From Gammaproteobacteria bacterium (GTDB lineage: Bacteria > Pseudomonadota > Gammaproteobacteria > S012-40), in the NCBI GenBank assembly GCA_029881255.1, contig JAOUMY010000005.1, forward strand, positions 66,479-130,478: a DNA stretch of 64,000 nt, written 5' to 3'. The notes beneath the pieces are model-generated. The model was given only the letters and a program-made list of their open reading frames with translations. It did not search any database and was not told the DNA's origin. Both the position numbers and the translations under genes were made by a program. Below are positions 25,931-46,481 of the stretch, piece by piece (position 1 is the stretch's first letter; each line of letters opens with the position of its first letter).

Positions 25931-26174
25931 GTATTTGCTTCACCGCGTGTTTGTGTTTGAGGTTTGGGATTGTAAAGACCGTAGTCGTGGGTGGCTACTG
26001 TCAAAAACGACAGTTCTGCTCACGATTTGATCAACAAAACGCTTGAACACACGCCAGACGTCGGCGCTTATCGGGTGTGAACACACCCACTTGGGTACAG
26101 CCACTACAAACATCATCATTAGCATTCCTTTTTCTAATGTTTTCGGGCGAGGTCCAAGAGTACGCCCGATGGGT

Positions 26175-26230
26175 TGGGAATGTAAAGTTATTAAGGGATT
26201 TCAGAGGCTTGCTAGTACATTTGTACTATC
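26175..26230 (+). repeat. conserved about 55-bp intergenic element, copy A (…tgtaaagtt…tcagaggcttgctagtacat)
   Basis: Shares the cgcccga / tgtaaagtt / tcagaggcttgcta core with copies at 28605-28660, 32052-32108 and 34243-34300. Confidence 0.6.
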
Positions 26231-26272
26231 GATTGAGAAGACTTGCTTCGAAGCCTTAGCGTTGAATGAAAT

Positions 26273-26455
26273 TTAAAATGCGCAAACAGGTTTCGGCAGA
26301 CTGTTGTGTGCTAGGTGATTCAGTGTAGTTCCTGCTCTAAATTCTTCGGGAAGGCGGAACATCTCCTCAATCAACCCGCCTTCAATCATGTCAATAAAGA
26401 TGTTCGCATCACTGATTAACAACATCTTGCGAACACTCCATGTTCCGACAGGCAT
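26273..26455 (-). CDS. short ORF, possibly truncated PIN-like/DUF4411-like gene often found downstream of HTH-ImmA regulators
   Basis: 60 aa. LLISDANIFIDMIEGGLIEE resembles a PIN-like N-terminus. Overlaps the ImmA gene end. Very tentative. Confidence 0.2.
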   Translation of the reverse strand: MPVGTWSVRKMLLISDANIFIDMIEGGLIEEMFRLPEEFRAGTTLNHLAHNSLPKPVCAF

Positions 26456-27476
26456 GGAGTGCCGATACTGACATTCCTAGTAATTCCGCAGCTTTTGATT
26501 CGCCAACAAGGTCTTCAGCTAAGGCATGGTAAACAAGTTGTTCAAACATACGAGCCGTTTCTTGAGGAAACTGTGGGTCGGGCTCTTGTTCTTTCCAGCC
26601 ATGTTTATTGAAGTATCCCCATAGTTTTCCGAAATGCTGGTTCGGCAATATACCGAGATCGCGTGCACGATAAAGCCATCCGCCCATGCTTAAGCCATAC
26701 TCGTGTTTGAGTATCATGAGTTCGCGCGGCTCTATCCAGGTTCGTTTGTTACCGAGATTCGCTTTTACTTTGCTTTGTGGTGCCAGGAATGCACCTGCGA
26801 AACGATGACAAGCGAGTTCTTCGTCCAAGTCTTTATTGAGGCGCCCATTGAGCACCAAGTGGCCTAGCTCATGCGCCAAGGTAAAACGCTGACGGTCTCC
26901 CGGCCAATGCTTTCCTACTACTACAACAGGACTTCCGTTGACGGTAGCAGACAGTCCATTGAAATGTTTGTGTCCGTCATATTGAGTAATAAAGACTTTA
27001 ATACCTTTTGCTTCGAGGGTATCTATCAGCACAGGAATCGGGTTTAGGCCGAGTTGCCATTCGGTGCGTATTTTATCCGCGACGTCTTCGATTTCATCAA
27101 ATGATTCTATTTGACGTGGCAAGTCTTCCGGAAGGACAAAAGGAACAGACCAGGGACTCGGAATAAATTCCTCCAGTTCTATCCAACGTTCAAGTTGCTC
27201 TTTTACGTCGGCATATACCTTTGCCTCTTCTTTAGCAGGCAGTTTTTCATGTTCACGATGTTCAACGTTCTCTAGCTCGACACTGACCTGGCGAAAGAAG
27301 TATTCGGTGCGAACATTTAGTGCTTTTGACAAGGCGAGCAAAACTTTCGACGAAGGCGTGGACTCGTTCCGTTCATATTTGGAGATCGCCATTGCTGTAA
27401 TCTCGGCCAACTCAGCCAAATCCCGCAATGACAGACCGGCAGCTTTCCGCGCTTGTTGTATCCGTTCTCCGATCAT
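26409..27476 (-). CDS. XRE-family HTH fused to ImmA/IrrE-type zinc metallopeptidase (DUF955) regulator
   Basis: N-terminal HTH QARKAAGLSLRDLAELAEITAMAISKYERNES. HEXXH motif LAHELGHLVL. 355 aa. Confidence 0.8.
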   Translation of the reverse strand: MIGERIQQARKAAGLSLRDLAELAEITAMAISKYERNESTPSSKVLLALSKALNVRTEYFFRQVSVELENVEHREHEKLPAKEEAKVYADVKEQLERWIELEEFIPSPWSVPFVLPEDLPRQIESFDEIEDVADKIRTEWQLGLNPIPVLIDTLEAKGIKVFITQYDGHKHFNGLSATVNGSPVVVVGKHWPGDRQRFTLAHELGHLVLNGRLNKDLDEELACHRFAGAFLAPQSKVKANLGNKRTWIEPRELMILKHEYGLSMGGWLYRARDLGILPNQHFGKLWGYFNKHGWKEQEPDPQFPQETARMFEQLVYHALAEDLVGESKAAELLGMSVSALHACRNMECSQDVVNQ

Positions 27477-27571
27477 TCTTGCTTCCTCGCAGCAGTTTAC
27501 ATAATTATTATTTCGAATGAATTTTTGTAAACTTTAGCATTCTAATCCATCGAGGTCAATTACCGGCATTG

Positions 27572-28480
27572 CTAAGCTGTTGATTTTATATACGGCACCC
27601 TCCCCACCGCCACCCCGTGCGCGTTCGCGCTTTCGCAGTGGACGAGTTGGTCGTCGAAAAATATGTGTGGGCGAAATGCCTTGAGGACTTCGCCTTTGGG
27701 CATGCCGCCGAGGAAAAACGTTTCGTCGAGGTCGACGTCCCAGGCGCGCAGGGTGCGGATGACGCGTTCGTGTGCGGGGCTGGCGCGGGCGGTGACGAGT
27801 GCGGTGCGTATCGGTTTGGGTTTGCTTGGGTGTTGGTTTTGTATATAGGCGAGGGATTTGAGTAATTTTGCGAACGGGCCTTCGGGTAGGGGTTTTTGTT
27901 TGTTGTCGCGTTCGTGTTTGACGAAGGCGTCCAGGCCTTGTTCTTTATAGATGCGTTCGGACTCGTCGGAGAACAACACCGCGTCGCCATCGAAGGCAAT
28001 GCGGATTTGATCAATTTCTGTCTGCTCGGGATGCGCCGGTGTTTCGTATAACAAGGCGGCGGCGATGTTGGCGTTGACTGCTGCTTGCACATCATCTTCA
28101 TACAGCGACAAAAACAAATCGATTTTGTAGGCGTGCAGATATGGCGCGAGGGTTTCACCGCCGGTGAGCGCGGCGCGTTGAATATCGAGGCCGTAGTGTT
28201 CGATGGAGTTGAATATGCGCAGACTGGTCTCGGCCGAATTGCGCGACATGATCACCACCTCGGTGGTGCGCTCGCCGGGCAGGGTTTGATTGAGTTTGAG
28301 AAAGGCCTTTACCAGCGGAAAACCGGGGCCGGGTTTGAGGATGTCGTTTTCGTGGGCGAGTTGATGGTCTTCATAGGCCCGGAGCCCCTGCTCGTCATAA
28401 ATGCGATTCTCCGCACTCAGGTCAAACAAGGCCCGCGAGGATATTCCAATAACGAGGTACTGACTGAGATCGACTGGCAA
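27572..28480 (-). CDS. HAD-superfamily 5'-nucleotidase (cN-IA-like / PF06189-type)
   Basis: HAD motif I IAFDGDAVLFSDESE (DxDxV). 302 aa. Family assignment from overall similarity recalled from memory, not searched. Confidence 0.5.
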   Translation of the reverse strand: MPVDLSQYLVIGISSRALFDLSAENRIYDEQGLRAYEDHQLAHENDILKPGPGFPLVKAFLKLNQTLPGERTTEVVIMSRNSAETSLRIFNSIEHYGLDIQRAALTGGETLAPYLHAYKIDLFLSLYEDDVQAAVNANIAAALLYETPAHPEQTEIDQIRIAFDGDAVLFSDESERIYKEQGLDAFVKHERDNKQKPLPEGPFAKLLKSLAYIQNQHPSKPKPIRTALVTARASPAHERVIRTLRAWDVDLDETFFLGGMPKGEVLKAFRPHIFFDDQLVHCESANAHGVAVGRVPYIKSTA

Positions 28481-28604
28481 ACATACTCCCTTTCAATGCT
28501 AACTCAGACACCAACCTAACCTGGGAGAGCGACAGGGTGTGTCGCTTGCATGGCAAATTGTCCTGATTTTGCCAATGTATTTCTCGGCGGCCGAAAGAAG
28601 CATA

Positions 28605-28660
28605 GGTCGAACGGGTGGATGTGTAAAGTTTTTAGCGAAATCAGAGGCTTGCTATTACAT
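28605..28660 (+). repeat. conserved intergenic element, copy B
   Basis: gtgtaaagtttttagcgaaatcagaggcttgctattacat. About 90 bp upstream of the 28752 gene. Confidence 0.6.
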
Positions 28661-28751
28661 AAGTATTACCTTCGGGGCGCTATTTACGCTGGCCATACAC
28701 GGCCAACATCGCTAACATAGCCGTTCCTTTGGTCCGAACAACAATAATCAA

Positions 28752-29402
28752 ATGCCAATCACCAGAATGCCGATTCATGTGCGTCTATTTCTCAGCGGTC
28801 TTGTGCTTTGCGCTTTGTCTTGTTCGTTAGTGTTTGCTGCCAATGTCGAAGATATTCCGCCGTGCGATAGCCCCAGTTGCGACCGCGTCGCGCAAACCAT
28901 TCCCTGGGAAAATGCGCACGCAAACCCTGACGGACAAACTGTACGCATCGGAAGATTTTCCTTCGTCATCCCTACGGGGGCTGAGGTACGTCTATCGGGG
29001 GATCTGACTTTTTTTCACTATAGTGATAAGCCGCGTCGTTGGTTGTCTGTTCGCTTGAACTCCATACAAGACGTCGATCTGACAGAAGCGGATTTAGGTG
29101 ATCTGCGCTTTGCCGATGCGGTTCGCATATTGTTCACTAAGACTCGCCAGGACAAAGAGCCGAGCAATCTTCATGCACGCAATATGTGGCGCAGCCTGTT
29201 ACACGCCAAGTCATTACACATTGCCGAGAACACGCCGGTGTATTTCTCTCACCGTGGTGACGCGGAAGTGGCCTTCGGTCAGTGGGAGGATGGCAGACGG
29301 TTTGTGTTTATAGCCAACAAACACACTTCCCATGCTTACGTACAGATAGAAGGCACAGGTTTCAGTGACGCGGAGATGAAGGGTTTTGCTTTTCAAAATT
29401 AA
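28752..29402 (+). CDS. secreted hypothetical protein (signal peptide)
   Basis: MPITRMPIHVRLFLSGLVLCALSCSLVFAANV. 216 aa. Confidence 0.5.
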   Translation: MPITRMPIHVRLFLSGLVLCALSCSLVFAANVEDIPPCDSPSCDRVAQTIPWENAHANPDGQTVRIGRFSFVIPTGAEVRLSGDLTFFHYSDKPRRWLSVRLNSIQDVDLTEADLGDLRFADAVRILFTKTRQDKEPSNLHARNMWRSLLHAKSLHIAENTPVYFSHRGDAEVAFGQWEDGRRFVFIANKHTSHAYVQIEGTGFSDAEMKGFAFQN

Positions 29403-29416
29403 AATAAGAGGAAGCC

Positions 29417-29749
29417 ATGGGCGCATTACAGCAAGAAGAGATTGCTGCCTTCGAATACATCTTCGAAGCGACATTCAAGGACAATCCTAAAAATCATGGT
29501 TGCGGCGTTCCCAACCGCCGAACGATTGATGCAATGGAAAAAGTGCTGGAAGAAGCAGAGAAGTGTAATAAGAATCTTTCCCGACTCATTACGCAACTGT
29601 TAGGAATCGCCATTCGTGGCCGTGGTTGGCTGATGCGTATACTCAAACAGTTGGGTAAGGAACTGAGTTTCAAGTTTCGTATGTGTCTTACCTTTACCGC
29701 GGGCTACTACTATAAATCCGTGGTGATTGAGACTATGTATCAGTGTTAG
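29417..29749 (+). CDS. hypothetical protein
   Basis: Good RBS aagaggaag 7 nt upstream. 110 aa. No recognised domain. Confidence 0.4.
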   Translation: MGALQQEEIAAFEYIFEATFKDNPKNHGCGVPNRRTIDAMEKVLEEAEKCNKNLSRLITQLLGIAIRGRGWLMRILKQLGKELSFKFRMCLTFTAGYYYKSVVIETMYQC

Positions 29750-29823
29750 TCTTGAAATTTGGGATAGATACAACTTTCTCTGCGAACCGAACCAATAAAA
29801 CAAAATCAATAAAGGAGATTTGT

Positions 29824-30177
29824 ATGGCCGATGCCATTCAAAAAGAAGAGCTTAGGCAGATGATAGAAGCGTTTTATCGTTTTGCGGGCGTGAATCCACC
29901 CGCCAATCTTGAAATCAATGAGAGTGTTGCCAGTGTGTTTGGGTCGATGTTGCAGGAAACCCGCAAGTGTTCGGATGCTTTCAAGTGGATTCCTCCGCCC
30001 CCAGGTGGTAGGCCGAGTATCGGCTGGTTGGTTACCAATATCGGCAAGTCTTTCATCAGGAGCCTGAATGATAAGATGTCGTTTACTTGTGCCCGTGGCG
30101 TGATTTATGTTTGGGGGCATCATTTGCAACGTGCTTCGTTGCTCAATATTTCAATGGGAACTCCAGCATGGGCGTAG
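29824..30177 (+). CDS. hypothetical protein
   Basis: RBS aaaggag upstream of ATG at 29824. 117 aa. Confidence 0.4.
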   Translation: MADAIQKEELRQMIEAFYRFAGVNPPANLEINESVASVFGSMLQETRKCSDAFKWIPPPPGGRPSIGWLVTNIGKSFIRSLNDKMSFTCARGVIYVWGHHLQRASLLNISMGTPAWA

Positions 30178-30761
30178 TTAAAAGTATTTCATTTATCCTC
30201 TGCCTCACCTTCTCATCAATTAGCTGTGCCGCCGATGCATTGCGTGAGATACCGTGGCCAAACAAATCCACGTGTATTGATTGCTTGCAGGTGGAACTCA
30301 ATCGTTATCAGTTTCAGTTACCCAGCAGTGATGTAAAGTCGGTTTCGACGCAAACGCTTTCGAGCACGGTAGTGGATATTCAATTAACGCGTGATGCCAG
30401 CCAACGCGGTATCGCCTTGATGGAATTGACACCGGAAAAGTTAACCGCGGATTTTGAACAACTCGGCTATTTTTCAAAGCTGCATATCAAAAACACTCGC
30501 GAGTTTTTTCTCGTCCTCGGCAAAACCTATGACGAAAAATCCCCCGGCGACATCATGCGCAAGACCATGGCGGTGGATGTGGCCAGTGAATATGTGTGGA
30601 GCCATAAAGATAATCTGAGTGCGTTCTGGATGAAATCGAATAATCCAAGTTCGCAGAGTGTGTATGTGGTGAATGATAAGGAAGCAAATGTGTTGTTTGT
30701 AGGTGGTGCGGTGACGGAGGAGTTGTTTGGGAGGATTTTGGGGACGTTGCGGATTCGGTGA
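30172..30761 (+). CDS. secreted hypothetical protein of the cassette family; in-frame TGA followed by conserved family C-terminus (to 30890)
   Basis: Signal peptide ISFILCLTFSSISCAADA. After the TGA at 30759 the same frame continues for 43 more codons to a TAA stop (30891-30893). It encodes NRLITLILSGPEIGFMETVI, homologous to the C-terminus DRLITLTLWGRDIGFLESVI of the 34365 protein. Confidence 0.5.
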
Positions 30762-30939
30762 AGAAAGTTGTATCTGTTCCCAATTTCAGTGACCAACCGT
30801 CTCATCACCTTGATACTGTCGGGCCCGGAAATTGGGTTTATGGAGACGGTGATATCAGAAATCAACAACGCGGAACATTCGCAGACCAGATAAAATATTT
30901 TTTTCGTGGATCAGAAAAACAATAAGAGGAAATTTCTCA

Positions 30940-31620
30940 ATGAATAGCGAACAACAAAACGACAAAGCGCAAAATTTTAACCAAATGTTGGTAAGGGCAA
31001 TCTTCAATACCTCAGTAGCCATACTTATCTGCATACCAATAAGCTTTTTTGATTACCCAGACTACATCGATTCAATCCTGGATAGCGCCTTTTTCCTGTC
31101 TTGGATTCTATGTGGTGCGTTAATAACCACGCTGCACTTTAGAATGAAAAAGGCAAAACTAGGCTGGCTTGCTTTGTCATATTGGTCGATACTATTTATT
31201 TTGCCTATCTTCATGCCATTTTACCTTCCTGTATTTTTTTCGCTCATTGGCGCACAAGTCTACAATAAAGCGAAGAATCCGCTGACACTCGGCGATGACG
31301 AGACTGCCCTTGTACCTGATAATAGCGAAACGGAATTAACAGCGACTCAGGATGGGAGTTCATCTTTGACGCTTGCCTGGGTTCTTCTCATTTCTCATTT
31401 TCCCTATCTCGTGTTCCTATATACCTTCGACTATTCTGAGTGGAATGGAGTCTTCGCTTTGACGACGACATTTTGCATCGCCGCCCCGGTGACTATTCTC
31501 ACCATTTTTTTTCTGGGCGGAAATGCGCCGCAGAAGGAACGCGGCCAAATCAGCTTTATAAAGCTGATCATGCTAGCGGCGTTGATAGCAGAAGTATACC
31601 TGTCCACAACAGGACACTAG
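30940..31620 (+). CDS. integral membrane hypothetical protein (about 6 TM)
   Basis: RBS aagaggaaa upstream. Hydrophobic segments throughout. 226 aa. Confidence 0.5.
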   Translation: MNSEQQNDKAQNFNQMLVRAIFNTSVAILICIPISFFDYPDYIDSILDSAFFLSWILCGALITTLHFRMKKAKLGWLALSYWSILFILPIFMPFYLPVFFSLIGAQVYNKAKNPLTLGDDETALVPDNSETELTATQDGSSSLTLAWVLLISHFPYLVFLYTFDYSEWNGVFALTTTFCIAAPVTILTIFFLGGNAPQKERGQISFIKLIMLAALIAEVYLSTTGH

Positions 31621-32051
31621 AATAAATCTGCCTGAATCAGGTTTAGAACGGGAAAATTGTAAGACACGCCGATTACTAAAAACAAACTGTTTCCTGTTAT
31701 ACAAGAGTAGATATCGTCTATGCGAAAATCAGGGAGATTTAAATGATTTACCGGACACGTGTAGTCATTGCAGACTGGTATTGCAAATTGCCGTAGCCTT
31801 CACCTGGAGATAGTTCGCTGAATGTTACCTAATATGTCAGCCATTAAACTTTCCATTCTTCGAATTATTTTCAAAAAGTTCGAACTCTACGCCGATTCGC
31901 AAGAATTCAACTTCTGTTCCGCACACTCAATCATGTCGTCCAGCTAATGTCTCCCCCCCGATTACTCCCGGGTTAGACTCCCGACTAAACTGCGGAAAGC
32001 AACAGGCCGCGCTATAAAGATGGCGATTGGGCTGAAAAGAATAGATCGAAC

Positions 32052-32108
32052 ACTTAGTTGTGTAAAGTTTTTGAAGTTATCAGGGGTTCGCTAGTTCGAA
32101 GGTAGTAA
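32052..32108 (+). repeat. conserved intergenic element, copy C, immediately followed by orphan cassette 3' fragment (32120-32216)
   Basis: tcgaacacttagttgtgtaaagtttttgaagttatcaggggttcgctagtt. Then a short ORF ending LPDRLITLRLRGRDIGFMETGIWGQII. Confidence 0.6.
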
Positions 32109-32335
32109 GCCCTATAGCAATTATCCTGACCTTGCCCGACCGTCTCATCACCTTGAGATTGCGGGGTCGGGATATTGGGTTTATGGAAACTGGGATTTGG
32201 GGGCAAATTATATAAAAATGTACTGAGAATTCAGTAGCTAGTTCGTTCTGCATAGTTTGAATTCTCGCCTTTACATCAACATGTTTGCCATGTTACGGTT
32301 TCCTCACGAAAACACTTAAATTGCTAGTTAAAATG

Positions 32336-32998
32336 AAAATAATAGCTCTTCCAATTGCCGTAGCCTTCACCTTATTCCTCAGCCCGCCGGGTTTCGCCGA
32401 AACGGACTCATTGCCCACAGCCATGCAGTCCTGCGCCAATATGACGGTTTGTGAGCAAACAGCGGTCAAGCAGCCGTTTCCCGGAGCGGGAAACAATCTG
32501 GAAGTCGCTGTTGGTGGTGGACACTTTTCATTCTTTCCGCCTGATGCCGTAACCGATGTCGCCGTGGGGTGGGGAGAGTCGCCAAACTATGTGATCAGAC
32601 TCAAGGGTGGCAAGCTCATGGCATCCGAGGAGCGTCTGGTGCGCCTGGATAACACGGGTCTTTGCTCAGCGAACGAGTCGCCAGCACCAACTCTGGCACG
32701 TTTTCTTTTTCTTCAGACCGCGAAAGAAAAGGAACCTGACGACAAATGTCAACAAACAATTTTCAGGCTGGCTTTTTTTCAAAAGAGTTCGTCCATATTC
32801 AAGGATGCTCAACATTTGGTCTGGTTCGAGAAGAACAACCTGGAGATTTATCTCGCCAATGTTTCGGGCATTGATCACGACACCTACGCGATGGTGACTC
32901 ATCGAGACAAGCCGTTCCACTATTTAGTGATACGTACCCAGGGAGTTGATAGAGAACGTTTGCTCAAAACACTTGCAACAATAAAAATAAAACCATAA
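32336..32998 (+). CDS. secreted hypothetical protein (cassette family member)
   Basis: Signal peptide MKIIALPIAVAFTLFLSPPGFA. C-terminus LLKTLATIKIKP resembles ...VIAGIKIKK of the 34365 protein. Confidence 0.5.
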   Translation, partial: KIIALPIAVAFTLFLSPPGFAETDSLPTAMQSCANMTVCEQTAVKQPFPGAGNNLEVAVGGGHFSFFPPDAVTDVAVGWGESPNYVIRLKGGKLMASEERLVRLDNTGLCSANESPAPTLARFLFLQTAKEKEPDDKCQQTIFRLAFFQKSSSIFKDAQHLVWFEKNNLEIYLANVSGIDHDTYAMVTHRDKPFHYLVIRTQGVDRERLLKTLATIKIKP

Positions 32999-33008
32999 GG
33001 CCTTATCT

Positions 33009-33353
33009 ATGACACTGACCTATACACAACAGAAAGATGTTGCGGAGTTGTTGGCTGCACTCTTTAACGACAATGAATATCTCTACCACGTAAACAAAAT
33101 CAACCGCGAAACTGTGCGTTACGCGGAAGACGTTATTGTGATGTTCCGCTTCTGTAACAAGGCATCGGCTGGATTGTTGGCGGGGATACAGTGCATTCCG
33201 AAGTCTAAAAACATCTATGGCTGGTTACTAAGCTGTCTTCCTGCAGTACATAAAGTGGTCAAGGCCAATCGCGAGATTTTCTATTCTAATTTTATGTGCG
33301 ATATCGCAATACAGTCGCATCGAAATGCGCTTAAAGGGACGATGATCCGCTAG
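33009..33353 (+). CDS. hypothetical protein
   Basis: 114 aa. Its last 8 codons (HLKGTMIR*-like NALKGTMIR*) lie within the 32-bp repeat also found at 37756. Confidence 0.35.
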   Translation: MTLTYTQQKDVAELLAALFNDNEYLYHVNKINRETVRYAEDVIVMFRFCNKASAGLLAGIQCIPKSKNIYGWLLSCLPAVHKVVKANREIFYSNFMCDIAIQSHRNALKGTMIR

Positions 33354-33361
33354 TGGGGGCG
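33330..33361 (+). repeat. 32-bp direct repeat copy 1 (cttaaagggacgatgatccgctagtgggggcg)
   Basis: Identical 32-mer at 37756-37787. Confidence 0.7.
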
Positions 33362-33648
33362 ATGAATACGCATTTGGCTTGTCGGAGTCGAGCAGTTATG
33401 GGATAGATCTGGTGTATCAACATCTGTTCAACCACCCACAGCGTCCCGCGAACTTCGGCATCGTAACTACTAATATGGTAGGGAACGCCAATGCCACTGG
33501 TGTTTCCTGTCATCAGCGAACCTGGAGGCGCCGTATATGTGCCTTTGGGAATTGGTGCATACAAGCCCGGCATGCCGGAGCGAACCTTCCATGATTTTCC
33601 GAAGCCCTGTAGTTGTTGCAGATTAGTGTTATAAACAAGCGTGGTCAT
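33331..33648 (-). CDS. hypothetical protein (possibly coupled to upstream secreted protein gene)
   Basis: 105 aa. ATGA overlap with the 33645-34151 gene. No domain recognised. Confidence 0.3.
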   Translation of the reverse strand: MTTLVYNTNLQQLQGFGKSWKVRSGMPGLYAPIPKGTYTAPPGSLMTGNTSGIGVPYHISSYDAEVRGTLWVVEQMLIHQIYPITARLRQAKCVFIAPTSGSSSL

Positions 33649-34151
33649 TTTTTACAATTTCCTTTCAGTAATTCTAGTTGTTTTTCGAGATCGTGGTATT
33701 TTGGCGCACTTTCCCCACTCCAGAACAGCAGCACAGTATTGTTATCGCGTTGTGTGCAGAGATATACGCGTAGCACGAACGTGGTATCGTTGTATCGATA
33801 ACCGGTGTACTGCCAGGGTGTGCCATCGCCAGTCTGCTTTTGAGTATTTGGGAATTGCTGACTATCCATATCGGCTAGTCGTTGATAGTAGTTGCGCCCA
33901 ACCCCCCTTGTATCAACAAACCACAACATATTATCGCTACCGAACGTGGGTTTGATCCATGTAGATGTGTTGATATCCAGACCCTGTTCGATCAAGGCAG
34001 CGAGAAATTCATTGTCGGCAGCGAGTATGGCCCGCTCATCAATGGAAACTTTCAACCAGCCGTCTACTGTATCGTTTTTGTTTGCAAAACAACTGGTGGA
34101 ACAAACAAATGCCATCAGCGAAAACAATAGAATGAAATGTCGGTGACGCAT
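33645..34151 (-). CDS. secreted hypothetical protein
   Basis: Signal peptide MRHRHFILLFSLMAFVCSTSCFA. 168 aa. Confidence 0.5.
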   Translation of the reverse strand: MRHRHFILLFSLMAFVCSTSCFANKNDTVDGWLKVSIDERAILAADNEFLAALIEQGLDINTSTWIKPTFGSDNMLWFVDTRGVGRNYYQRLADMDSQQFPNTQKQTGDGTPWQYTGYRYNDTTFVLRVYLCTQRDNNTVLLFWSGESAPKYHDLEKQLELLKGNCKK

Positions 34152-34242
34152 AGCGTGGAATTCTCAATACGGGTTCAGCAACAACATGGAACTATGCATA
34201 GATAGGCCTATCCATTTATCAGTTTTTATAGCTGTGACCAAG

Positions 34243-34300
34243 ACTACGCCCGATTAAGTAGGTGTGTAAAGTTCTTTATATATGTACCGGATCGAATAGT
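34243..34300 (+). repeat. conserved intergenic element, copy D
   Basis: acgcccgattaagtaggtgtgtaaagttc... About 70 bp upstream of the 34365 gene. Confidence 0.5.
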
Positions 34301-34364
34301 ACAAAGGTGGTATCTCTTTTGCTGGTGCTCAATTTATGCCGCAAAACATATTGAGTAGCCCGCG

Positions 34365-34856
34365 ATGTCGAAGGGCAAAGCAAAACCAATTCACTATGGC
34401 CCCCTGAATATCGATCTGCCCGAAAACCCGACTTCTATAAGCACCTCGGGAATCGATGGCAAGTTAGTCATCACCTTTACTGGCAAGACCGAGGCTGACT
34501 ATAGCCAACTGATGAATATGGATTTCAGCAAAAGCCAGTTTCGTCTCGCCGACAAAGCACGCATTCAATACGGCGCACTGAAAGCAGCGAAGAACGCTTT
34601 GAACGAACAAGATCAGGCCTTTTGGAATCGCCACCTGCAAAACAGACATGCGCTGTTTTCAGAAAAGTCACGATTGTTCATTACCGGCCACTCTGGTCTA
34701 ACGGTTTACTATTCCAATGAACGACCTCAGTGGTGGTCCGCACAGGCGATCATTACTTTGGACGAGTTGCCCGACCGGCTTATCACGTTAACACTGTGGG
34801 GTCGAGATATTGGGTTTCTGGAGTCGGTGATTGCGGGAATTAAAATAAAAAAATAG
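34365..34856 (+). CDS. hypothetical protein, cassette family with full-length conserved C-terminus
   Basis: 163 aa. C-terminus TLDELPDRLITLTLWGRDIGFLESVIAGIKIKK is shared with orphan fragments at 30780-30890 and 32120-32216. Confidence 0.5.
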   Translation: MSKGKAKPIHYGPLNIDLPENPTSISTSGIDGKLVITFTGKTEADYSQLMNMDFSKSQFRLADKARIQYGALKAAKNALNEQDQAFWNRHLQNRHALFSEKSRLFITGHSGLTVYYSNERPQWWSAQAIITLDELPDRLITLTLWGRDIGFLESVIAGIKIKK

Positions 34857-36377: not shown

Positions 36378-36541
36378 CTGGCGCGGGCGGTGACGAGTGC
36401 GGTGCGTATCGGTTTGGGTTTGCTTGGGTGTTGGTTTTGTATATAGGCGAGGGATTTGAGTAATTTTGCGAACGGGCCTTCGGGAGATATTGAGTTTGAG
36501 AAAGGCCTTTACCAGCGGAAAACCGGGGCCGGGTTTGAGGA
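36378..36541 (+). repeat. internally deleted, 100 %-identical fragment of the 5'-nucleotidase gene (copies of 27780-27886 and 28289-28341 joined)
   Basis: 107 bp identical to 27780-27886, a 4-nt junction, then 53 bp identical to 28289-28341. Same orientation as the parent gene. Confidence 0.8.
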
Positions 36542-36665
36542 AAGTAGGGGCAGATACCAGTTTTCGCTAATGTAAGCAGTAGCTTGTATCTGACCCGACT
36601 TTCCCTTGACCAGATGCAACATAAGAGTTATACGTTACATACATCTATTTAACGTATAACACCCT

Positions 36666-37755: not shown

Positions 37756-37787
37756 CTTAAAGGGACGATGATCCGCTAGTGGGGGCG
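37756..37787 (+). repeat. 32-bp direct repeat copy 2
   Basis: cttaaagggacgatgatccgctagtgggggcg. Forms the end of a tiny remnant ORF (…HLKGTMIR*). Confidence 0.7.
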
Positions 37788-37986: not shown

Positions 37987-39369
37987 TTGAACCAGACGCC
38001 CTTTTCCACACTTGCACTCAACCCCGCCCTGCTCGAGAACCTGAGCTCGCTCGGCTATACCGCCATGACACCCATCCAGGCGCAGAGTTTGCCGCATGTG
38101 CTGGCGGGCAAGGATGTGATTGCGCAGGCGAAGACAGGTTCTGGTAAGACCGCGGCATTTAGTCTGGGTTTGCTGGAAAAGCTGGATGTGCGAAACCTGC
38201 GTGTGCAGGGTTTGATTCTTTGCCCGACGCGGGAGCTGGCAGATCAGGTGGCGACCGAGGTGCGCAAACTGGGGCGCAGTATTCCGAACATCAAGGTGCT
38301 GACGCTGTGTGGCGGCACGCCCGTCGCGCCGCAGAAGGCCTCGCTGGAACATGGTGCGCATATCATCGTCGGCACACCTGGCCGGGTGGAGGATCACCTT
38401 AATCGCGGCTCGCTGAAACTCGATGGGCTCAACACCCTGGTACTGGATGAGGCGGATCGCATGCTCGATATGGGTTTTCAACCGGCGCTGGATGCAATTA
38501 TCGACGCCATACCCACGCAGCGTCAGACGCTATTGTTTAGTGCCACCTTTCCGCAGCAGATTCAATCCATCGCTAAGCGCGTGATGCGCGAGCCGGTATC
38601 GGTGCAGTTGGAAGAAACCCATGACAGCAGCAGTATTCAACAGCACTTCTTCAAACTCGATGACAATGTAGAACGTTTGACCGCCGTGCGTTTGCTGCTG
38701 CTCAAGCATCGGCCGGAATCCGCGGTGGTATTTTGTAATATGAAAAAGGACGCGCAGGAAATTGCAGATGAACTGGGCCGTTATGGCTTTACTGCCAAGG
38801 CCTTGCATGGTGATCTGGAACAACGTGAGCGTGATCAGACGCTGGTGCAGTTTGCCAACAAAAGTATTTCGATTCTGGTGGCGACCGATGTCGCGGCGCG
38901 CGGGCTGGATATCGATGCACTGGATGCGGTGATCAATTATCAACTGGCGCACGATGCGGAGGTACACGTGCACCGTGTCGGTCGCACCGGTCGCGCGGGT
39001 AACAAGGGCATTGCCTGTACTTTGTATTATGAAAAAGAGGCGCACAAATTGGCGCGGCTTGAGGAATATTTAGGCCGTTCGATCAAAGCCGAATCTCTGC
39101 CCTCTTTTAATGTGCTGGAAAAACCGGTCTATCGCGCAGCGATGGTGACACTACAAATCGATGGCGGTAAAAAACAGAAAGTCCGCGCCGGTGATATTCT
39201 GGGTGCACTGACCGGCGAAAACGGGATTGATGGAAAACAGGTGGGCAAGATTCAGTTATACGATAACTGGTCTTTTGTCGCAGTGCGACAGGAAGTCGCA
39301 AAGGCCGCGTTGCAGAAATTAACCCAGGGTAAATTGAAAGGCCGCTCGTTTCGAGTGCGGAAAATATAG
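37987..39369 (+). CDS. dbpA: ATP-dependent RNA helicase DbpA (DEAD-box with C-terminal 23S rRNA-binding RRM-like domain)
   Basis: Q motif/Walker A AKTGSGKTAAF. DEAD box VLDEAD. SAT. HRVGRTGRAG. C-terminal RBD VTLQIDGGKKQKVRAGDILGALTGE. Confidence 0.9.
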   Translation: MNQTPFSTLALNPALLENLSSLGYTAMTPIQAQSLPHVLAGKDVIAQAKTGSGKTAAFSLGLLEKLDVRNLRVQGLILCPTRELADQVATEVRKLGRSIPNIKVLTLCGGTPVAPQKASLEHGAHIIVGTPGRVEDHLNRGSLKLDGLNTLVLDEADRMLDMGFQPALDAIIDAIPTQRQTLLFSATFPQQIQSIAKRVMREPVSVQLEETHDSSSIQQHFFKLDDNVERLTAVRLLLLKHRPESAVVFCNMKKDAQEIADELGRYGFTAKALHGDLEQRERDQTLVQFANKSISILVATDVAARGLDIDALDAVINYQLAHDAEVHVHRVGRTGRAGNKGIACTLYYEKEAHKLARLEEYLGRSIKAESLPSFNVLEKPVYRAAMVTLQIDGGKKQKVRAGDILGALTGENGIDGKQVGKIQLYDNWSFVAVRQEVAKAALQKLTQGKLKGRSFRVRKI

Positions 39370-39432
39370 CGAGTTACTGAGAAAGTTGTGACTGAGCCTA
39401 CTTTCCGGGTTCGGTGAGTAATCCACTGTCAA

Positions 39433-40865: not shown

Positions 40866-41108
40866 GTGAGCAACACCGCCATGCAAGAATTTTTCATCGG
40901 CCCCCTATCCCGTTACACCTATGGCTGGATCGCTTTGTTTGTGTTTGCCTGTTTTGGGGTTTACATGATTTATCGTGCCCGGCAGGGGAAGCGGCTCGAT
41001 AAGTTTATCGCTCTGGGTTTGTCTGCCAGGGTTCAGTTGTGGTGCGGGGTGTTTTGTTTGTTGCCGGTGGTTTTGTATAGCTTTGGGGTTTTGTTGATTG
41101 GAGGTTAA
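40866..41108 (+). CDS. small membrane protein (2 TM), hypothetical
   Basis: 80 aa. WIALFVFACFGVYMIY and VFCLLPVVLYSFGVLLIGG are hydrophobic helices. Confidence 0.3.
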   Translation: MSNTAMQEFFIGPLSRYTYGWIALFVFACFGVYMIYRARQGKRLDKFIALGLSARVQLWCGVFCLLPVVLYSFGVLLIGG

Positions 41109-41110
41109 TA

Positions 41111-41207
41111 CACAAGGCTTTGGCCTTTTGCACTAACTCGCTAGTTACTTAGAGATTGACGGACTTTTTTGGGGCAGGCGAATCGCACAGGGCATGTTCG
41201 GTCATAG
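41111..41207 (-). pseudogene. ccdA-like antitoxin 5' remnant (18 codons then stop) plus diverged copy of the ccdA upstream region (41208-41290)
   Basis: Minus-strand MTEHALCDSPAPKKSVNL* versus intact CcdA MTEHALGYTPAPKKSVNLSVN. About 80 nt beyond are about 75 % identical to 43521-43620. Confidence 0.6.
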
Positions 41208-41274
41208 AAGGCTCCGAGTGTGGCATAGGTGCAGCACCTGCGCATCAAGCATGAAGAATCCGTGTGCGGACAGA

Positions 41275-41544
41275 TGCCAGTTTTCCGTGTTGGAAAAACC
41301 GGTCTATCGCGCGGCGATGGTGACACTACAAATCGATGGCGGCAAAAAACAAAAAGTCCGCGCCGGTGATATTCTCGGTGCACTTACCGGTGAAAACGGG
41401 ATCGATGGTAAACAGGTGGGCAAGATTCAGTTATACGACAACTGGTCTTTTGTCGCCGTGCGACAGGAAGTCGCGAAGGCCGCGTTGCAGAAATTAACCC
41501 AGGGTAAATTGAAAGGCCGTTCGTTTCGGGTGCGGCGGGTATAG
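41275..41544 (+). pseudogene. diverged duplicate of the last about 90 codons of dbpA (orphan 3' fragment)
   Basis: About 93 % nt identity to 39100-39369. Encodes a DbpA RBD identical except for the last residues (RVRRV versus RVRKI). No upstream dbpA body. Confidence 0.8.
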
Positions 41545-43269: not shown

Positions 43270-43520
43270 TAGAACTTCCTCTTGCCGTCACTAAACACAC
43301 CTTGGTCCGCTGTTCGTTTGTTGTAATCGTCGATGGCGTCGGCATTTTCTGCGATCCAGTTTTGCCGTTCCTTTTCACGTATGGCCTGGACCAGGGCGAC
43401 TTCGAGCAGGGCAGAGAGGTTAATGCCCAGACCTTTTGCCTTTTGCACTAACTCGCTGTTTACACTGAGATTGACGGATTTTTTTGGGGCAGGCGTATAA
43501 CCCAGGGCATGTTCGGTCAT
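43269..43520 (-). CDS. ccdA: CcdA-family antitoxin
   Basis: 83 aa. KKSVNLSVNSELVQKAKGLGINLSALLEVALVQAIREKERQNWIAENADAIDDYNK matches the CcdA ribbon-helix-helix plus C-terminal toxin-binding region. Confidence 0.7.
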   Translation of the reverse strand: MTEHALGYTPAPKKSVNLSVNSELVQKAKGLGINLSALLEVALVQAIREKERQNWIAENADAIDDYNKRTADQGVFSDGKRKF

Positions 43521-43690
43521 AGGTGGTTCCGTATTTGGTATAGGGGAAGTATATGCGCACTATTTATGCGCATCAAGCACGAAAAACCCATCTGCGGACA
43601 GATTCCCATTTCCCATTTAACCCTATCGCCAAAGCCGGGTTTGTGCCGCATAATAGCCGCCCTTTTGCCCACGCCCGCGAGCACGCCCGT

Positions 43691-44207: not shown

Positions 44208-46481
44208 CTAACGAAACCGATCCGTAATCGCCGATACGTGTGTTTTTCCGTAGCCAGTTTTGCCAATTACCTTTAACAAGTAAACACCGGGCTCTGGCAA
44301 ATCGACTTCTTTTTCCACCGCATTACGTCCCAAATCCTTCCAGTGTCCGATCGACTTTCCAGCAAGCGTTAGCAACTCGATTTCATAAACGGCGCCAGCT
44401 TCATTGGGTTCAAAAATAAGCTTGATCAGCTTGTCGAATCGACTACTCAGTCGATACACGGCCTCGGCTCCTTCCGCTATCATGCCGGTGAAAACGCCTT
44501 GATTAACTTTGACAATATTCTCGGTGCTTTTTAAGTTCTGGTCTGTGGCTAGTTCCGAAACAAAAAATGCAAATTCACCGTAGGACTTGGTGCCTTCAAG
44601 TTCCAGGCGGTAGTCACCCGTGTAGTTTGGGGTAAACACAAATTCCTGGGTTTGTTTACCGGCGTCTTTCATTGTCTTTACTTTCTTCCCTCTGGGATCA
44701 CGTAGGTCAAACCGATAACGCAGATCAGATTGCCGCGCTTCCAGTCGGATGATGACTGGCGAGTTGCGCTTGAATCGCGCCTTGTACTTGCGTACCTGAT
44801 TGTCGACGAGTTCGCCCTCATGAAATTCGTCAAACACCACTTTGTTATTGTGTTCTTCCTGGCCCTGCTCAGAAAAATTGCTGACCTCAAGTGTGTAGTC
44901 ACTTACGTCTTTTGCGCCGGTAATACGTATGTAGAAATTAGCGCTATGCTCGACGGCGTGTGAAAACTCATGAAAATTATTGGCTACTTTCGTCCAGGAT
45001 TTGATTGGTTTGAAACGTGTGTCCAAAAACTCGATGTCGTATTGCGCGGCGGCTTTGTCTTTATCCAGAGAAAACACTACAGACGCGCCTTTATCCAGCC
45101 TGACTTTGTACTCCGCAACCCCGCCCTCGGCCATAATACTGCTCTGTTGCTCACCGAACTTCAGGGTTTGTTTGCGCAGCTCCTTATCTGAAATAATCTG
45201 CTGCATCGCCAGCCCTGCTCGTCCATATCCTTTCTCACCGATAAAGCGCAGCACGTATTGATTATTCCTGGGTGGTGTAAACACCAATTCATTGTGATTG
45301 GTTCCCAGTCCCTTCCACTGCTTTATTAGCTTGCGACTTCTATCGACTAGCTGCAACTCATAGCTCATGCCATTACTGGTTTTTTCAGACACCAACAAAA
45401 TCGGCGTATTTTTACTCCCGCGGTAACGGTATTCGCTCTCTGCACCGGCGGCGATCATCGGTTCGATGCGCTCACCGTCCTGGATACGGTTGCTCGAGCT
45501 TCGCAGTTCTGAATCTTTGGCCAATTGGGTGACAATCAGATCGTAGTCGCCTTGATTGCGCGTACCGATGACCTTAAGTTCGTAGCGATCTGAGTCTTCC
45601 GGCGTAAACAGCATTTCTTTATAAGTTGCCCCAAGATTTTTTTCCTGTCGTAGCATCTTGTTTTTTGAGGACCATATCTGTAGATCAAAACGAGTGCCTT
45701 TTTCCATTTTCGGAGTAGCCAGTAATACCGGCGAATTCTTTTTAAGTTTTAGTGCATACCCGTCCGTTTCGTTCAATTTGATGTCGCCTTTAAAATGCGC
45801 AAGCACGTCACCCGACATGGCCGACGTGTCGCCTTGAACGTATTTTGTAAATTTGATGACGTTGTCTGTCTCATACGAATCACCTTCGAAAAACAGACTG
45901 ACAATTTTGTCGATAGATGATTGTTTAATAACATTACCGAAACCCTCCTCCTCACTAAGAAGCATTCCAACAACATATTCCCCTATGTATAAGGTACCTC
46001 CACTGTAACCTTGTGAAATAGTATCGGATGGATTCATTGCTTCTATCAGGAGGTGATCTTGCAAGTTTTCGCGTATAAAGACACGTATTGATATCAAACC
46101 TCCGCTGTCATTACGTACTTTTAGCACTCCCTCCTGATTTTCATCCAGAATCTTGGCAATGCCCGTGCCTTTATTCCAAACGCTATTCTTACAGGCGTCA
46201 TAGCTTTCTACAATCAGTACTGCAGTATCGAATTGATCACCGAACTCTTGTATGAGCTTCGCACCGAATGTTTTTCGACCGCCTGTTACAAGCTTAATCG
46301 GACCGCCCTTCTCCACCACATGTTGTGCTGTGACAAAAAAACACTCGTGTCCCCTGGTTCTAAAAGTTCCCTGACCAAACTCGCCGTCAGCAATAACCCG
46401 GGCATCCGATGCCATCGCGTCAAAATTAAACATTGATAAAGTCATCACGACGAATACTGGCGATAGGAAATATTTTTTCAC
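44208..46481 (-). CDS. secreted trypsin-like serine protease with multiple C-terminal beta-sandwich (PPC-like) repeat domains
   Basis: Signal peptide KKYFLSPVFVVMTLSMFNFDAMA (GTG start at 46481). TAQHVV (His region) and QGYSGGTLY (Ser region). At least 4 repeats of about 110 aa with Y-x-L-K/R-V/F cores. Confidence 0.6.
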   Translation of the reverse strand: MKKYFLSPVFVVMTLSMFNFDAMASDARVIADGEFGQGTFRTRGHECFFVTAQHVVEKGGPIKLVTGGRKTFGAKLIQEFGDQFDTAVLIVESYDACKNSVWNKGTGIAKILDENQEGVLKVRNDSGGLISIRVFIRENLQDHLLIEAMNPSDTISQGYSGGTLYIGEYVVGMLLSEEEGFGNVIKQSSIDKIVSLFFEGDSYETDNVIKFTKYVQGDTSAMSGDVLAHFKGDIKLNETDGYALKLKKNSPVLLATPKMEKGTRFDLQIWSSKNKMLRQEKNLGATYKEMLFTPEDSDRYELKVIGTRNQGDYDLIVTQLAKDSELRSSSNRIQDGERIEPMIAAGAESEYRYRGSKNTPILLVSEKTSNGMSYELQLVDRSRKLIKQWKGLGTNHNELVFTPPRNNQYVLRFIGEKGYGRAGLAMQQIISDKELRKQTLKFGEQQSSIMAEGGVAEYKVRLDKGASVVFSLDKDKAAAQYDIEFLDTRFKPIKSWTKVANNFHEFSHAVEHSANFYIRITGAKDVSDYTLEVSNFSEQGQEEHNNKVVFDEFHEGELVDNQVRKYKARFKRNSPVIIRLEARQSDLRYRFDLRDPRGKKVKTMKDAGKQTQEFVFTPNYTGDYRLELEGTKSYGEFAFFVSELATDQNLKSTENIVKVNQGVFTGMIAEGAEAVYRLSSRFDKLIKLIFEPNEAGAVYEIELLTLAGKSIGHWKDLGRNAVEKEVDLPEPGVYLLKVIGKTGYGKTHVSAITDRFR

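Follow-up and report, generated by a model that had tools for sequence, protein, structure and literature searches.

A repeated intergenic sequence resembling a promoter-operator module in a defence-gene-rich region of an uncultured gammaproteobacterium

The kind of element described here is already known. Putative mobile promoters (Matus-Garcia, Nijveen and van Passel, 2012) are defined by an identity of 80% or more over a minimum of 50 nt (PMC3575422) and are similar non-coding stretches of 50-100 bp before unrelated genes of one genome, dispersed and tied to no recognisable insertion sequence or RNA family. Operator-promoter repeats also occur within single regulons, e.g., of the XRE/Cro-CI type, with a palindrome at a fixed distance from the promoter of several units; usual repressor operators overlap the promoter. 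In integron cassette arrays, direct repeats (attC sites, i.e., hairpin-forming inverted repeats with R'' and R' boxes) separate small function-unassigned genes in a variable region. Finally, Correia elements, ERIC and REPIN are short intergenic repeats that can give promoters to their neighbours; these bear terminal inverted repeats or strong hairpins, with copy numbers of tens to hundreds.

The sequence analysed here, a repeated non-coding stretch of ~85 bases present in five copies (c1 to c5) within a variable region, rich in defence genes, of an uncultured gammaproteobacterium, resembles each of these in part. It shares with putative mobile promoters its length, its position before unrelated genes and its independence of insertion sequences and RNA families. 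Unlike them, its best pair (c1-c2) reached 39/50 in the best 50-column window, with most pairs at 55-70%, its copies are clustered in 22 kb, and its core promoter is accompanied by a palindromic putative operator. As in XRE/Cro-CI-type regulons, a 16-bp palindrome stands at a fixed distance from the promoter in several units, and the gene faced by c2 is closely followed downstream by one of the XRE family. In contrast to regulon operators, however, the whole promoter of ~85 bp, rather than the operator alone, is homologous between sites, which points to DNA copying rather than to convergent binding sites; the putative operator also lies upstream of the -35, near -69, in an activator-like position. 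The integron likeness extends to homologues of the local array gene pair between attC-like repeats in Litorilituus sediminis, but here the blocks comprise several genes, on both strands, the element precedes genes rather than following them, and we found neither a hairpin-forming inverted repeat nor IntI. Unlike Correia, ERIC and REPIN sequences, the element lacks terminal inverted repeats and obvious target duplications, and numbers five copies in 73 kb.

In the window, i.e., the whole 64-kb stretch of DNA that was analysed, four clear copies lie at 26150-26235 (c1), 28591-28675 (c2), 32030-32114 (c3) and 34234-34319 (c4), and a diverged fifth at 48208-48303 (c5), all in the same orientation. 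The initial annotation had listed four co-oriented copies, which we recovered, all on the plus strand, and its weaker match near 48228 proved real, comprising AGCATA-N17-TGTAAA (48208-48236) and the palindrome TAGAACTAAAGTAGTA (48288-48303). The element is longer than the ~55 bp first proposed, conservation extending over ~85 bp in all copies, and its identity, put at 70-80%, had been overstated: it amounts to 53-75% over the 55-nt core and 47-61% over 86 aligned columns. The flanking cgcccga and tcgaac motifs are genuine, and mark two left-end subtypes (c1 and c4 versus c2 and c3, respectively); further left, weak additional similarity was seen between c1/c2 and c1/c4. A 9-nt block, TGTAAAGTT, is invariant amid ~50% pairwise identity in the remaining element; exact matches between copies, judged from the alignments, extend to ~14 nt at most, and c4 is the most diverged among c1-c4. 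Exact matches to the core TGTAAAGTTNTT number four, and allowing up to one mismatch raises this to seven versus 2.0 expected. A profile built from c1-c4 scored each of them at E 8e-20 to 4e-18, values that are circular given that the same copies built it; in the whole 64-kb window it found nothing further and missed c5.

The element is not coding: c1 and c2 differ by a frame-shifting indel, and c3 contains a stop codon. The right flanks of the copies are unalignable, their similarity being no greater than that of shuffled sequence, and neighbouring proteins are at most 25% identical; the element thus stands out as an island of conservation. In most pairs this conservation stops a few bases beyond the -10 described below, roughly at the expected transcription start. 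The material comprises five copies from a single strain, and part of the conservation could reflect shared ancestry rather than selection. Searched with a strict core pattern, 185,579 species genomes and the JGI metagenome and viral collections contained no true copy; plasmid and phage records were likewise negative by BLAST with single copies, and the five copies were the only ones in 73 kb examined. So far as testable, the window, 73-kb and collection searches yielded neither a random distribution nor a ubiquitous REP family, the two outcomes that the initial annotation had named as contrary to its proposal.

On the minus strand, all five copies read TTTACA, 17-18 nt, TAnnCT, i.e., a sigma-70-type -35/-10 arrangement. 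The corresponding pattern AG..TA-N17/18-TGTAAA was found five times on both strands of the window versus 0.37 expected (maximum of two in 100 shuffles); these matches coincide with the five copies, and a palindrome-like TAnn[ACT]C-N4-G[TG]nnTA follows in every case. An independent consensus scanner called c2, c3 and c5 promoter-like on the minus strand, c5 being its sole minus-strand match in that intergenic region. When the four-copy alignment was shuffled by column, a promoter-like site appeared in all four copies in 1 of 20,000 trials, and in a single shuffled copy in ~4% of trials. In c5, the -35, spacer length and -10 are intact although most other positions have changed. Counting against a sigma-70 reading, the -10 hexamers are weak, with 3-4 of 6 positions matching, and neither the invariant C at -10 position 5 nor the invariant TCG inside the c1-c4 spacer is explained by it.

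Upstream of the -35, at 25-26 nt (51 nt in c5), lies an imperfect 16-bp palindrome, TAGTAC-N4-GTACTA, which is perfect in c1 only. With up to two mismatches the pattern occurred five times versus 0.96 expected, consistently on one side of the core, and the stretch between palindrome and promoter is A/T-rich beside the promoter. The c5 copy keeps the order and strand of the others, with ~26 extra nt between core promoter and palindrome; this shift of ~26 bp is not a whole number of helical turns, which counts against a module.

The minus-strand signals point at genes on that strand in four of the five copies. In c1, the -10 TACTCT (26157-26162), 18-nt spacer, -35 TTTACA (26181-26186) and palindrome TAGTACATTTGTACTA (26213-26228) would give a start near 26150 facing hsdR (GTG 25930); the right side of this copy adjoins the 3' end of a short minus-strand ORF behind the XRE-ImmA gene. 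In c2, the -10 TATGCT (28599-28604), 17-nt spacer, -35 TTTACA (28622-28627) and palindrome TATTACATAAGTATTA (28653-28668) place a predicted start near 28592, facing a minus-strand 5'-nucleotidase gene (TTG 28480, Shine-Dalgarno AAGGGAG), after which comes the XRE-ImmA gene (26409-27476) on the same strand. The c4 signals, namely the -10 TAGTCT (34241-34246), 18-nt spacer, -35 TTTACA (34265-34270) and palindrome TAGTACAAAGGTGGTA (34297-34312), suggest a start near 34234 ahead of minus-strand genes for a secreted protein (33645-34151) and a small protein (33331-33648). In c5, the -10 TATGCT (48208-48213), 17-nt spacer and -35 TTTACA (48231-48236) put the likely start near 48201, ~33 nt before the ATG at 48167 of a signal-peptide protein gene with a strong Shine-Dalgarno (GGAAGGA), the first of a minus-strand operon (47478-48167, 46478-47539, 44208-46541). 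The fifth case, c3 (-10 TATTCT at 32038-32043, 17-nt spacer, -35 TTTACA at 32061-32066, palindrome TAGTTCGAAGGTAGTA at 32092-32107), is followed by 410 nt of non-coding DNA and then the end of a plus-strand gene (30940-31620), and is probably an orphan copy. Its want of a minus-strand gene to drive counts against a leftward reading, as do the long 5' leaders of c1 (~220 nt) and c2 (~112 nt).

The most likely reading, to which we give an even chance, is that of a compact promoter-operator module that has spread by copying to at least five intergenic sites over ~22 kb. Reading along the minus strand, the palindrome would be followed, after 25-26 bp (51 bp in c5), by a sigma-70-type core promoter, from which RNA polymerase with the housekeeping sigma factor would start transcription toward lower coordinates. 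Its targets would be hsdR (c1), the 5'-nucleotidase gene and then XRE-ImmA (c2), the secreted and small protein gene pair (c4) and the secreted-protein operon (c5), with c3 left as an orphan after deletions. A dimeric DNA-binding protein may occupy the palindrome, centred near -69 (near -95 in c5). The copies, their conserved blocks and their placement relative to genes are directly observed, whereas we infer promoter activity, its leftward direction and the existence and identity of a regulator, direction and activity being read from consensus matches. Of the roles initially proposed, a shared promoter/operator is the supported one, with the difference that the conserved signal is on the minus strand and does not face the plus-strand genes.

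It is possible, though rather doubtful, that the element is instead the upstream control region of the plus-strand "cassette" genes, duplicated with an ancestral secreted-protein gene, in which case a regulator or non-canonical sigma factor would drive rightward transcription and the minus-strand look-alike would be incidental or a second, divergent promoter. Around c2-c4 lies an array of fast-diverging genes (28752-34856, both strands). It encodes signal-peptide proteins (28752-29402, 30168-30761, 32333-32998 and, on the minus strand, 33645-34151), with which one protein without a signal peptide (34365-34856) was grouped, as well as a membrane protein (30940-31620) and ~110-aa cysteine-containing helical proteins (29417-29749, 29824-30177, 33009-33353 and possibly 33331-33648 on the minus strand). 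A 32-nt exact repeat occurs at 33330 and 37756, and 100%-identical fragments of the 5'-nucleotidase gene lie at 36378-36541. As first described, c1 is upstream of hsdR, and c2, c3 and c4 each precede a plus-strand gene, the palindrome ending 84, about 225 and 53 nt before the respective start codons. These genes, beginning at 28752 (divergent from c2), 32333 and 34365 (divergent from c4), belong to one divergent protein family, with a common C-terminal motif, and resemble old paralogues, an arrangement that weighs against leftward transcription. All neighbours of c3 are on the plus strand, and directly to its right (32132-32219, plus strand) lies a non-coding C-terminal remnant of a gene like that at 34365, 75% identical over 24 aa. 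This remnant shows c3 to have arisen, by internal deletion, from a c4-like unit of element plus a gene like that at 34365; at least c3 and c4 thus go back to a unit of element and plus-strand gene.

Nevertheless, the plus strand carries no conserved -35/-10 arrangement; the one canonical promoter signal that all copies share points away from these genes, and the scanner found no promoter-like site on that strand between any copy and its plus-strand gene. The right half of the palindrome (TACTAT, TATTAC, TAGTAA, TGGTAT, TAGTAA) lacks T at position 6 in three of five copies and A at position 2 in c4, and the sequence between element and plus-strand start codon is not conserved. Moreover, for c1 there is no plus-strand gene, and rightward transcription would run antisense into the XRE-ImmA operon; the plus-strand gene of c5, which encodes a hybrid histidine kinase, is unrelated and lies at a distance of ~380 nt; and a fourth family member, at 30168, has no copy.

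That an RpoE-like ECF sigma factor recognises the leftward promoter, as AACTT, 15 nt, TCG(A/G)N, we regard as improbable; if true, the downstream genes would belong to an envelope-stress-type regulon. On the minus strand, c1-c4 read (A/G)AACTT-N15-TCGGG, TCGAC or TCGAT, which would account for the invariant AAC beside TTTACA and the invariant TCG, as sigma-70 does not, and two downstream units encode signal-peptide proteins. Compared with the Escherichia coli sigma-E motif (GGAACTT, a 15-19 nt spacer with 16 preferred, TCAAA; PMC1312014), however, the GG of GGAAC is absent, the -10 matches at TC only and the 15-nt spacer is at the edge of the reported range. The motif is lost in c5 (ATCTT, with TCG not at the right place), where the sigma-70 hexamers are intact, and hsdR and 5'-nucleotidase are not typical envelope-stress genes.

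It is likewise improbable that old segmental duplications in a rearrangement-prone island left the copies behind as functionless relics, their promoter resemblance being coincidental. The region is full of rearrangement scars (gene remnants, the 5'-nucleotidase fragments, the 32-nt repeat), c3 is an orphan, and the copies are few and from one strain. Set against this, divergence is uneven, with the invariant block and fixed-spacing hexamers embedded in poorly conserved sequence; the element is still alignable where surrounding DNA and proteins have diverged beyond recognition; and c5 retains exactly the promoter hexamers and palindrome, having lost the rest.

A recombination site bounding mobile gene cassettes, whether integron-attC-like or served by a recombinase encoded elsewhere in the genome, was another of the initial proposals and is very unlikely. 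The direct-repeat copies do divide the array into multi-gene blocks, and its small-protein/secreted-protein pair has the Litorilituus relatives mentioned above. Yet R''/R' core sites and RYYYAAC/GTTRRRY boxes were absent, and the single-stranded DNA folds of c2-c4 were no better than shuffled (z +0.6 to +1.7), versus ~-1.4 to -3.1, by copy and strand, for the Litorilituus repeats, whose profile had no match in the window. Among the sizeable ORFs of the window, none was found to carry a tyrosine-recombinase (Phage_integrase) domain, the inter-copy blocks hold 3-5 genes on both strands, and c5 lies outside any array. The proposed 5'-UTR RNA element, or any structured RNA (leader, riboswitch or small RNA), is scarcely credible: the element is intergenic and better conserved than its surroundings, but no Rfam family reached its threshold anywhere in the window, structure prediction gave consensus folds of only five pairs (-0.3 and -0.9 kcal/mol on the two strands), compensatory change was confined to two of the five pairs of one weak helix in the minus-strand fold, broken by c4, and the sole recurrent stem is the 6-bp DNA palindrome, with mismatches uncompensated.

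Returning to the promoter-operator module, binding of a protein to the palindrome would place otherwise unrelated units under one control. The intergenic regions that hold c2, c4 and c5 are divergent, so their plus-strand neighbours could come under the influence of the same site as well. Because c2 lies upstream of the 5'-nucleotidase gene and then XRE-ImmA on the same strand, a regulatory link to the neighbouring XRE-ImmA protein is possible.

Five copies of an intergenic element of about 85 bp were compared, c1 (26150-26235), c2 (28591-28675), c3 (32030-32114), c4 (34234-34319) and c5 (48208-48303). On the minus strand, all five share one anatomy, in which a 16-bp imperfect palindrome is followed, after 25-26 nt (51 nt in c5), by TTTACA-N17/18-TAnnCT. 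The palindrome is perfect in c1 (TAGTACAAATGTACTA) and has two mismatches to TAGTAC-N4-GTACTA in each of c2-c5; the interval that follows it turns A/T-rich beside the putative promoter. Sigma-70-type promoters have a -35 hexamer near TTGACA and a -10 hexamer near TATAAT (A at position 2, T at position 6), 16-18 bp apart. Judged by hexamers and spacing, the copies would qualify as such promoters on the minus strand. The -35 hexamer TTTACA matches the consensus at 5/6 positions in all five and the spacer is 17 or 18; the -10 hexamers, TACTCT (c1), TATGCT (c2), TATTCT (c3), TAGTCT (c4) and TATGCT (c5), are weak, with c1 and c4 matching at 3/6 positions only. The window, searched on both strands, contained the equivalent + strand arrangement, AG..TA-N17/18-TGTAAA, five times as against 0.37 expected, and all five occurrences were the copies themselves. 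A generic consensus scanner independently marked c2, c3 and c5 as promoter-like on the minus strand, and the same scanner returned no + strand promoter-like site between any copy and its + strand gene. When alignment columns were shuffled, a promoter-like site common to all four aligned copies arose in 1 of 20,000 trials. The element contains an invariant run, TGTAAAGTT, as compared with about 50% identity in the remainder, and two sets of invariant bases, AAC beside the -35 hexamer and TCG in the spacer, are left unexplained by a sigma-70 reading.

The initial annotation had listed c1-c4, and these were indeed present at those places, all on the + strand. It had given a length of about 55 bp; the repeat was borne out, but the conserved stretch covers about 85 bp. 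The 70-80% identity that it reported held for the best pair only, pairwise values being 47-61% when 86 columns are counted and 53-75% within the 55-nt core; the best 50-column window (c1 and c2) had 39/50 identical positions (78%), and other pairs had 27-36/50. A profile made from c1-c4 recovered each of them at E values of 8e-20 to 4e-18, which is circular in that it was built on the same copies, and it detected no further copies in the 64 kb or in the 9.4 kb past the right end. A weaker match suspected near 48228 proved to be a true fifth copy, c5, which was missed by the nhmmer profile search; the palindrome search and the hexamer-arrangement search each returned exactly c1-c4 plus 48208-48303. 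The blocks of c5 have the same order and strand as in the other copies, with about 26 extra nucleotides between core and palindrome. The 64-kb window and the 9.4 kb beyond it, taken from a contig of 248-328 kb, contain five copies, all inside 22 kb and all from one strain, the sole strain on record. At the left end, c1 and c4 share TACGCCCGAT and c2 and c3 share TAG(G/A)TCGAAC, which makes two subtypes; the right halves group otherwise (c1 with c2), so that the copies are mosaics. Beyond the element, the right-hand flanks resembled one another no better than shuffled sequence does. For c1 and c4, weak nucleotide similarity was the sole link between the left flanks, and the ORF left of c1 (25940-26125) had no protein similarity to p33645m, a minus-strand gene at 33645-34151.

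The source of the window is a metagenome-assembled Gammaproteobacterium (locus tags OEZ43_; ENA ERZ27296367, contig k141_1977797), and about 11-48 kb of the window is a variable, defence-type island. This island encodes two type I restriction-modification systems, Abi_2 and Fic proteins, CcdAB, an NTP_transf_8 nucleotidyltransferase, an XRE-ImmA fusion protein and many products without family assignment; the window has no tRNA or tmRNA gene. Read on the minus strand, c1 faces hsdR across a leader of about 220 nt, and c2 lies about 112 nt before a 5'-nucleotidase gene that has a good Shine-Dalgarno sequence and is followed by the XRE-ImmA gene (26409-27476) on the same strand. About 83 nt separate c4 from a gene for a signal-peptide protein, which is followed by a small protein gene. 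The distance from c5 is about 33 nt, to the start codon (ATG) of a second gene for a signal-peptide protein; this gene, with its strong Shine-Dalgarno sequence, is the first of a three-gene operon. These minus-strand genes are unrelated, the two signal-peptide proteins being dissimilar. Copy c3 has no minus-strand gene to drive and is best seen as an orphan; a C-terminal remnant of a gene like p34365 (34365-34856, + strand) follows directly, indicating that the c3 locus has decayed. What remains of the last 24-27 codons of such a gene, now non-coding, was seen at 30789-30876, right after the stop codon of the gene p30168, and at 32132-32219, right after c3 (compare 34767-34854); both remnants point to internal deletions within the array, the fast-diverging genes at 28752-34856. 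In addition, a 60-aa ORF (26273-26455, minus strand), directly downstream of the XRE-ImmA gene, ends abruptly beside c1. It had no Pfam match; its N-terminal part looks, on visual inspection, like the beginning of PIN-like partners of ImmA proteins, and it may be a truncated gene marking a deletion junction at c1.

The simplest account, to which the sequence features lead us to give about even weight, is that the element is a promoter-operator module copied within the island. A sigma-70-type core promoter would fire leftward, and a palindromic site centred near -69 would bind a dimeric regulator. Two properties of c5 argue for this reading, namely that this copy, though diverged, keeps exactly the hexamers, spacing and palindrome, and that it occupies a textbook position in front of a gene. 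The initial proposal of a shared promoter/operator is thereby retained as such and reversed in direction, the signals being read on the opposite (minus) strand.

The earlier association with + strand genes, perhaps as a bidirectional region, appears unlikely. On that strand, c2, c3 and c4 each lie before a member of a single, very divergent gene family, c1 is without a gene, the neighbour of c5 is an unrelated histidine kinase 380 nt off, and a conserved promoter signal is absent. A lesser rival is a leftward promoter of RpoE-like type, AACTT-N15-TCG, which would account for the invariant AAC beside the -35 hexamer and TCG in the spacer. The sigma-E motif consists of GGAACTT, a spacer of 15-19 nt (16 preferred) and TCAAA (PMC1312014); c1-c4 carry (A/G)AACTT-N15-TCG(G/A)N, matching it at 5-6/7 and 2-3/5 positions. 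This reading ranks as a lesser rival only, since both motifs are gone in c5. Other binding sites were compared by eye: for sigma-28 (TAAAGTTT-N11-GCCGATAA) the -35 part matches with no -10 at a sensible spacing, the GG/GC spacing of sigma-54 is wrong, and CRP, TyrR, LexA and IHF sites gave partial, half-site matches only. Neutral relics are a less likely explanation than a copied promoter-operator module, to which the signals kept in c5 point.

The genes p29417, p29824 and p33009 of the array encode proteins of about 110 aa that belong to one real, unannotated family, for which a profile search yielded 70 cluster representatives, the named sources being Gammaproteobacteria. Members are helical, of about 105-115 aa, with two conserved cysteines and a GW motif. 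The predicted structure was all-helical and confident (pLDDT 84.8) and had no significant match among solved structures; structural comparison of this model gave no support for a DNA-binding regulator. A gene for a signal-peptide protein of about 170-190 aa comes after the small gene in Litorilituus, Thioalkalivibrio, Rheinheimera and several metagenomes, and these proteins have cysteine and C-terminal motifs in common with the secreted proteins of the window. The module is a small protein beside a signal-peptide protein of about 170-220 aa. It occurs at 28752-34151 in the window, at 6007-7863 in the locus of Litorilituus sediminis CP034759 (L087), and at 7001-7891, 7001-7916, 7001-7829 and 2134-3014 in the loci L088, L090, L093 and L095; it had no family assignment in PADLOC, NCBIfam or Pfam. 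The closest relative of p33009 is 61% identical and has a like layout, a 222-aa gene and then a 113-aa gene. No homologues of p34365 or of p32333 were found beyond the source organism.

In L. sediminis, two module copies are placed among five attC-like direct repeats, each about 100 bp long and with TAAC...GTTATA ends (L087 5162-5263, 5889-5982, 6874-6976, 9616-9699 and 11776-11872). Three of the five were folded and gave end-to-end single-strand hairpins; no integrase was found within the 14 kb examined. The repeats indicate a chromosomal integron cassette array, and the placement of gene pairs between them suggests integron cassettes.

The initial annotation had also envisaged a recombination site for the cassette array, which is less likely. 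Integron attC sites have imperfect inverted repeats (R''-L''/L'-R') that fold a single strand into a hairpin, with core sites RYYYAAC and GTTRRRY at their ends, and an IntI tyrosine recombinase and attI lie beside the array. Single-stranded DNA folds of c2-c4 were slightly worse than those of shuffled sequence on both strands (z +0.6 to +1.7), whereas the Litorilituus repeats, folded alike, paired end to end (z about -1.4 to -3.1 by copy and strand); local hairpins were seen in c1 only. Inspection of the aligned copies revealed no RYYYAAC/GTTRRRY pair bracketing the element, and no Phage_integrase domain was present in the ORFs scanned or in gene tables covering 24-64 kb of the window and beyond. 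Negative folds and core sites, together with a negative profile of the Litorilituus repeats, led us to reject an attC/hairpin site, and the sharing of TGTAAAGTT by one Litorilituus repeat was considered coincidental. A 5'-UTR RNA element, another earlier suggestion, also proved less likely, and structured RNA was ruled out by the lack of any Rfam 15 match at gathering threshold in the whole window and by RNAalifold consensus folds of five pairs near zero energy (-0.3 and -0.9 kcal/mol on the two strands). A short conserved peptide was rejected: c1 and c2 translate into similar sequences (RGLL.H.YY), yet their frames are offset upstream by a 1-nt indel and c3 is interrupted by a stop codon.

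As far as pattern searches across genomes, viral contigs and metagenomes reach, the element is not a ubiquitous repeat; membership of a ubiquitous REP family, or a random distribution, was what the initial annotation had named as counting against its proposal. A 20-position pattern, which matches c1-c3, had no matches in 185,579 species genomes (one genome per species) or in viral contigs; in JGI metagenomes it had three matches only, all due to chance and within coding sequence. Plasmid and phage records, searched by BLAST, yielded nothing meaningful. The element was absent from 80 loci with 5'-nucleotidase homologues (all at most 67% identical) and from loci with small-protein homologues, Litorilituus included, the latter showing that it is lineage-specific and not a feature of the gene family. 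Repeats of the REP/MITE type have many genome-wide copies and terminal inverted repeats or a strong hairpin, and the element has neither terminal inverted repeats nor a hairpin. By the features examined, it is not an attC site and is probably not a REP/MITE-type repeat either. In function and origin it is nearest to the putative mobile promoters of Matus-Garcia et al. 2012, similar upstream DNA before unrelated genes, which are defined by upstream regions that are at least 80% identical over 50 nt or more (PMC3575422). The minus-strand genes downstream of the element are non-paralogous, as expected of mobile promoters, and the identity threshold is missed because the best pair reaches 78%. Another likeness is to the operator-promoter regions that recur among the targets of one regulator.

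Several other repeats were observed in the window. A 27-bp inverted repeat (29753-29779 and 30762-30788; 89% complementary) brackets the gene pair p29824/p30168. Similar quasi-palindromes of about 26 nt (GAAAGT...ACTTTC) lie upstream of the nucleotidyltransferase gene (36578-36603) and just after the DbpA helicase stop codon (39380-39405). These could form a small family of 3'-end repeats or delimit an inserted unit. The stretches 36378-36484 and 36489-36541 are fragments of the 5'-nucleotidase gene, 100% identical to 27780-27886 and 28289-28341; they adjoin upstream of the nucleotidyltransferase gene, lie about 400 nt apart in the gene itself, and have the look of a partial duplication that is very recent and internally deleted. 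A stretch of 32 nt, CTTAAAGGGACGATGATCCGCTAGTGGGGGCG, is repeated exactly and in direct orientation, once across the end of p33009 (33330-33361) and once just downstream of the nucleotidyltransferase gene (37756-37787); a public short-read assembly breaks at this repeat. Repeats of 81-93% identity (39112-39369 and 41287-41544; 41101-41286 and 43416-43614) take in the part of the DEAD-box helicase gene that encodes the C-terminal DbpA RNA-binding domain, with a separate DbpA-domain ORF of about 97 aa at 41194-41544, and are a partial gene duplication within the island. Finally, a 38-nt sequence that is near-perfectly palindromic (CATTTTCGTGACG.CACGAAAATG) occurs at 9398-9435 and 11505-11542 (95% identical, 2.1 kb apart), and the two could be an operator pair.

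A further, two-part reading, which we hold to be a long shot, makes the element the common cis-site of an island regulon and, more remotely still, has the copies double as exchange points. One palindrome-binding protein, for instance the XRE-ImmA protein encoded downstream of c2, could co-ordinately switch on the type I restriction enzyme, the regulator's own operon and several units of the two-gene module, which apparently moves as integron cassettes too in other Gammaproteobacteria; at exchange points, an unknown recombinase could shuffle modules. As a lineage-specific repeated promoter in one metagenome-assembled genome, the element would alone be of limited general interest. To our knowledge, the regulation of defence islands is still poorly mapped. 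If the promoter-operator module works as proposed, promoter copying would wire unrelated genes, i.e., a type I restriction endonuclease, the XRE-ImmA operon and uncharacterised secreted-protein modules in a defence/variable island, into one control circuit. A shared operator would allow the regulator, and hence the inducing condition, to be found, and the element gives a handle on an uncharacterised two-gene family.
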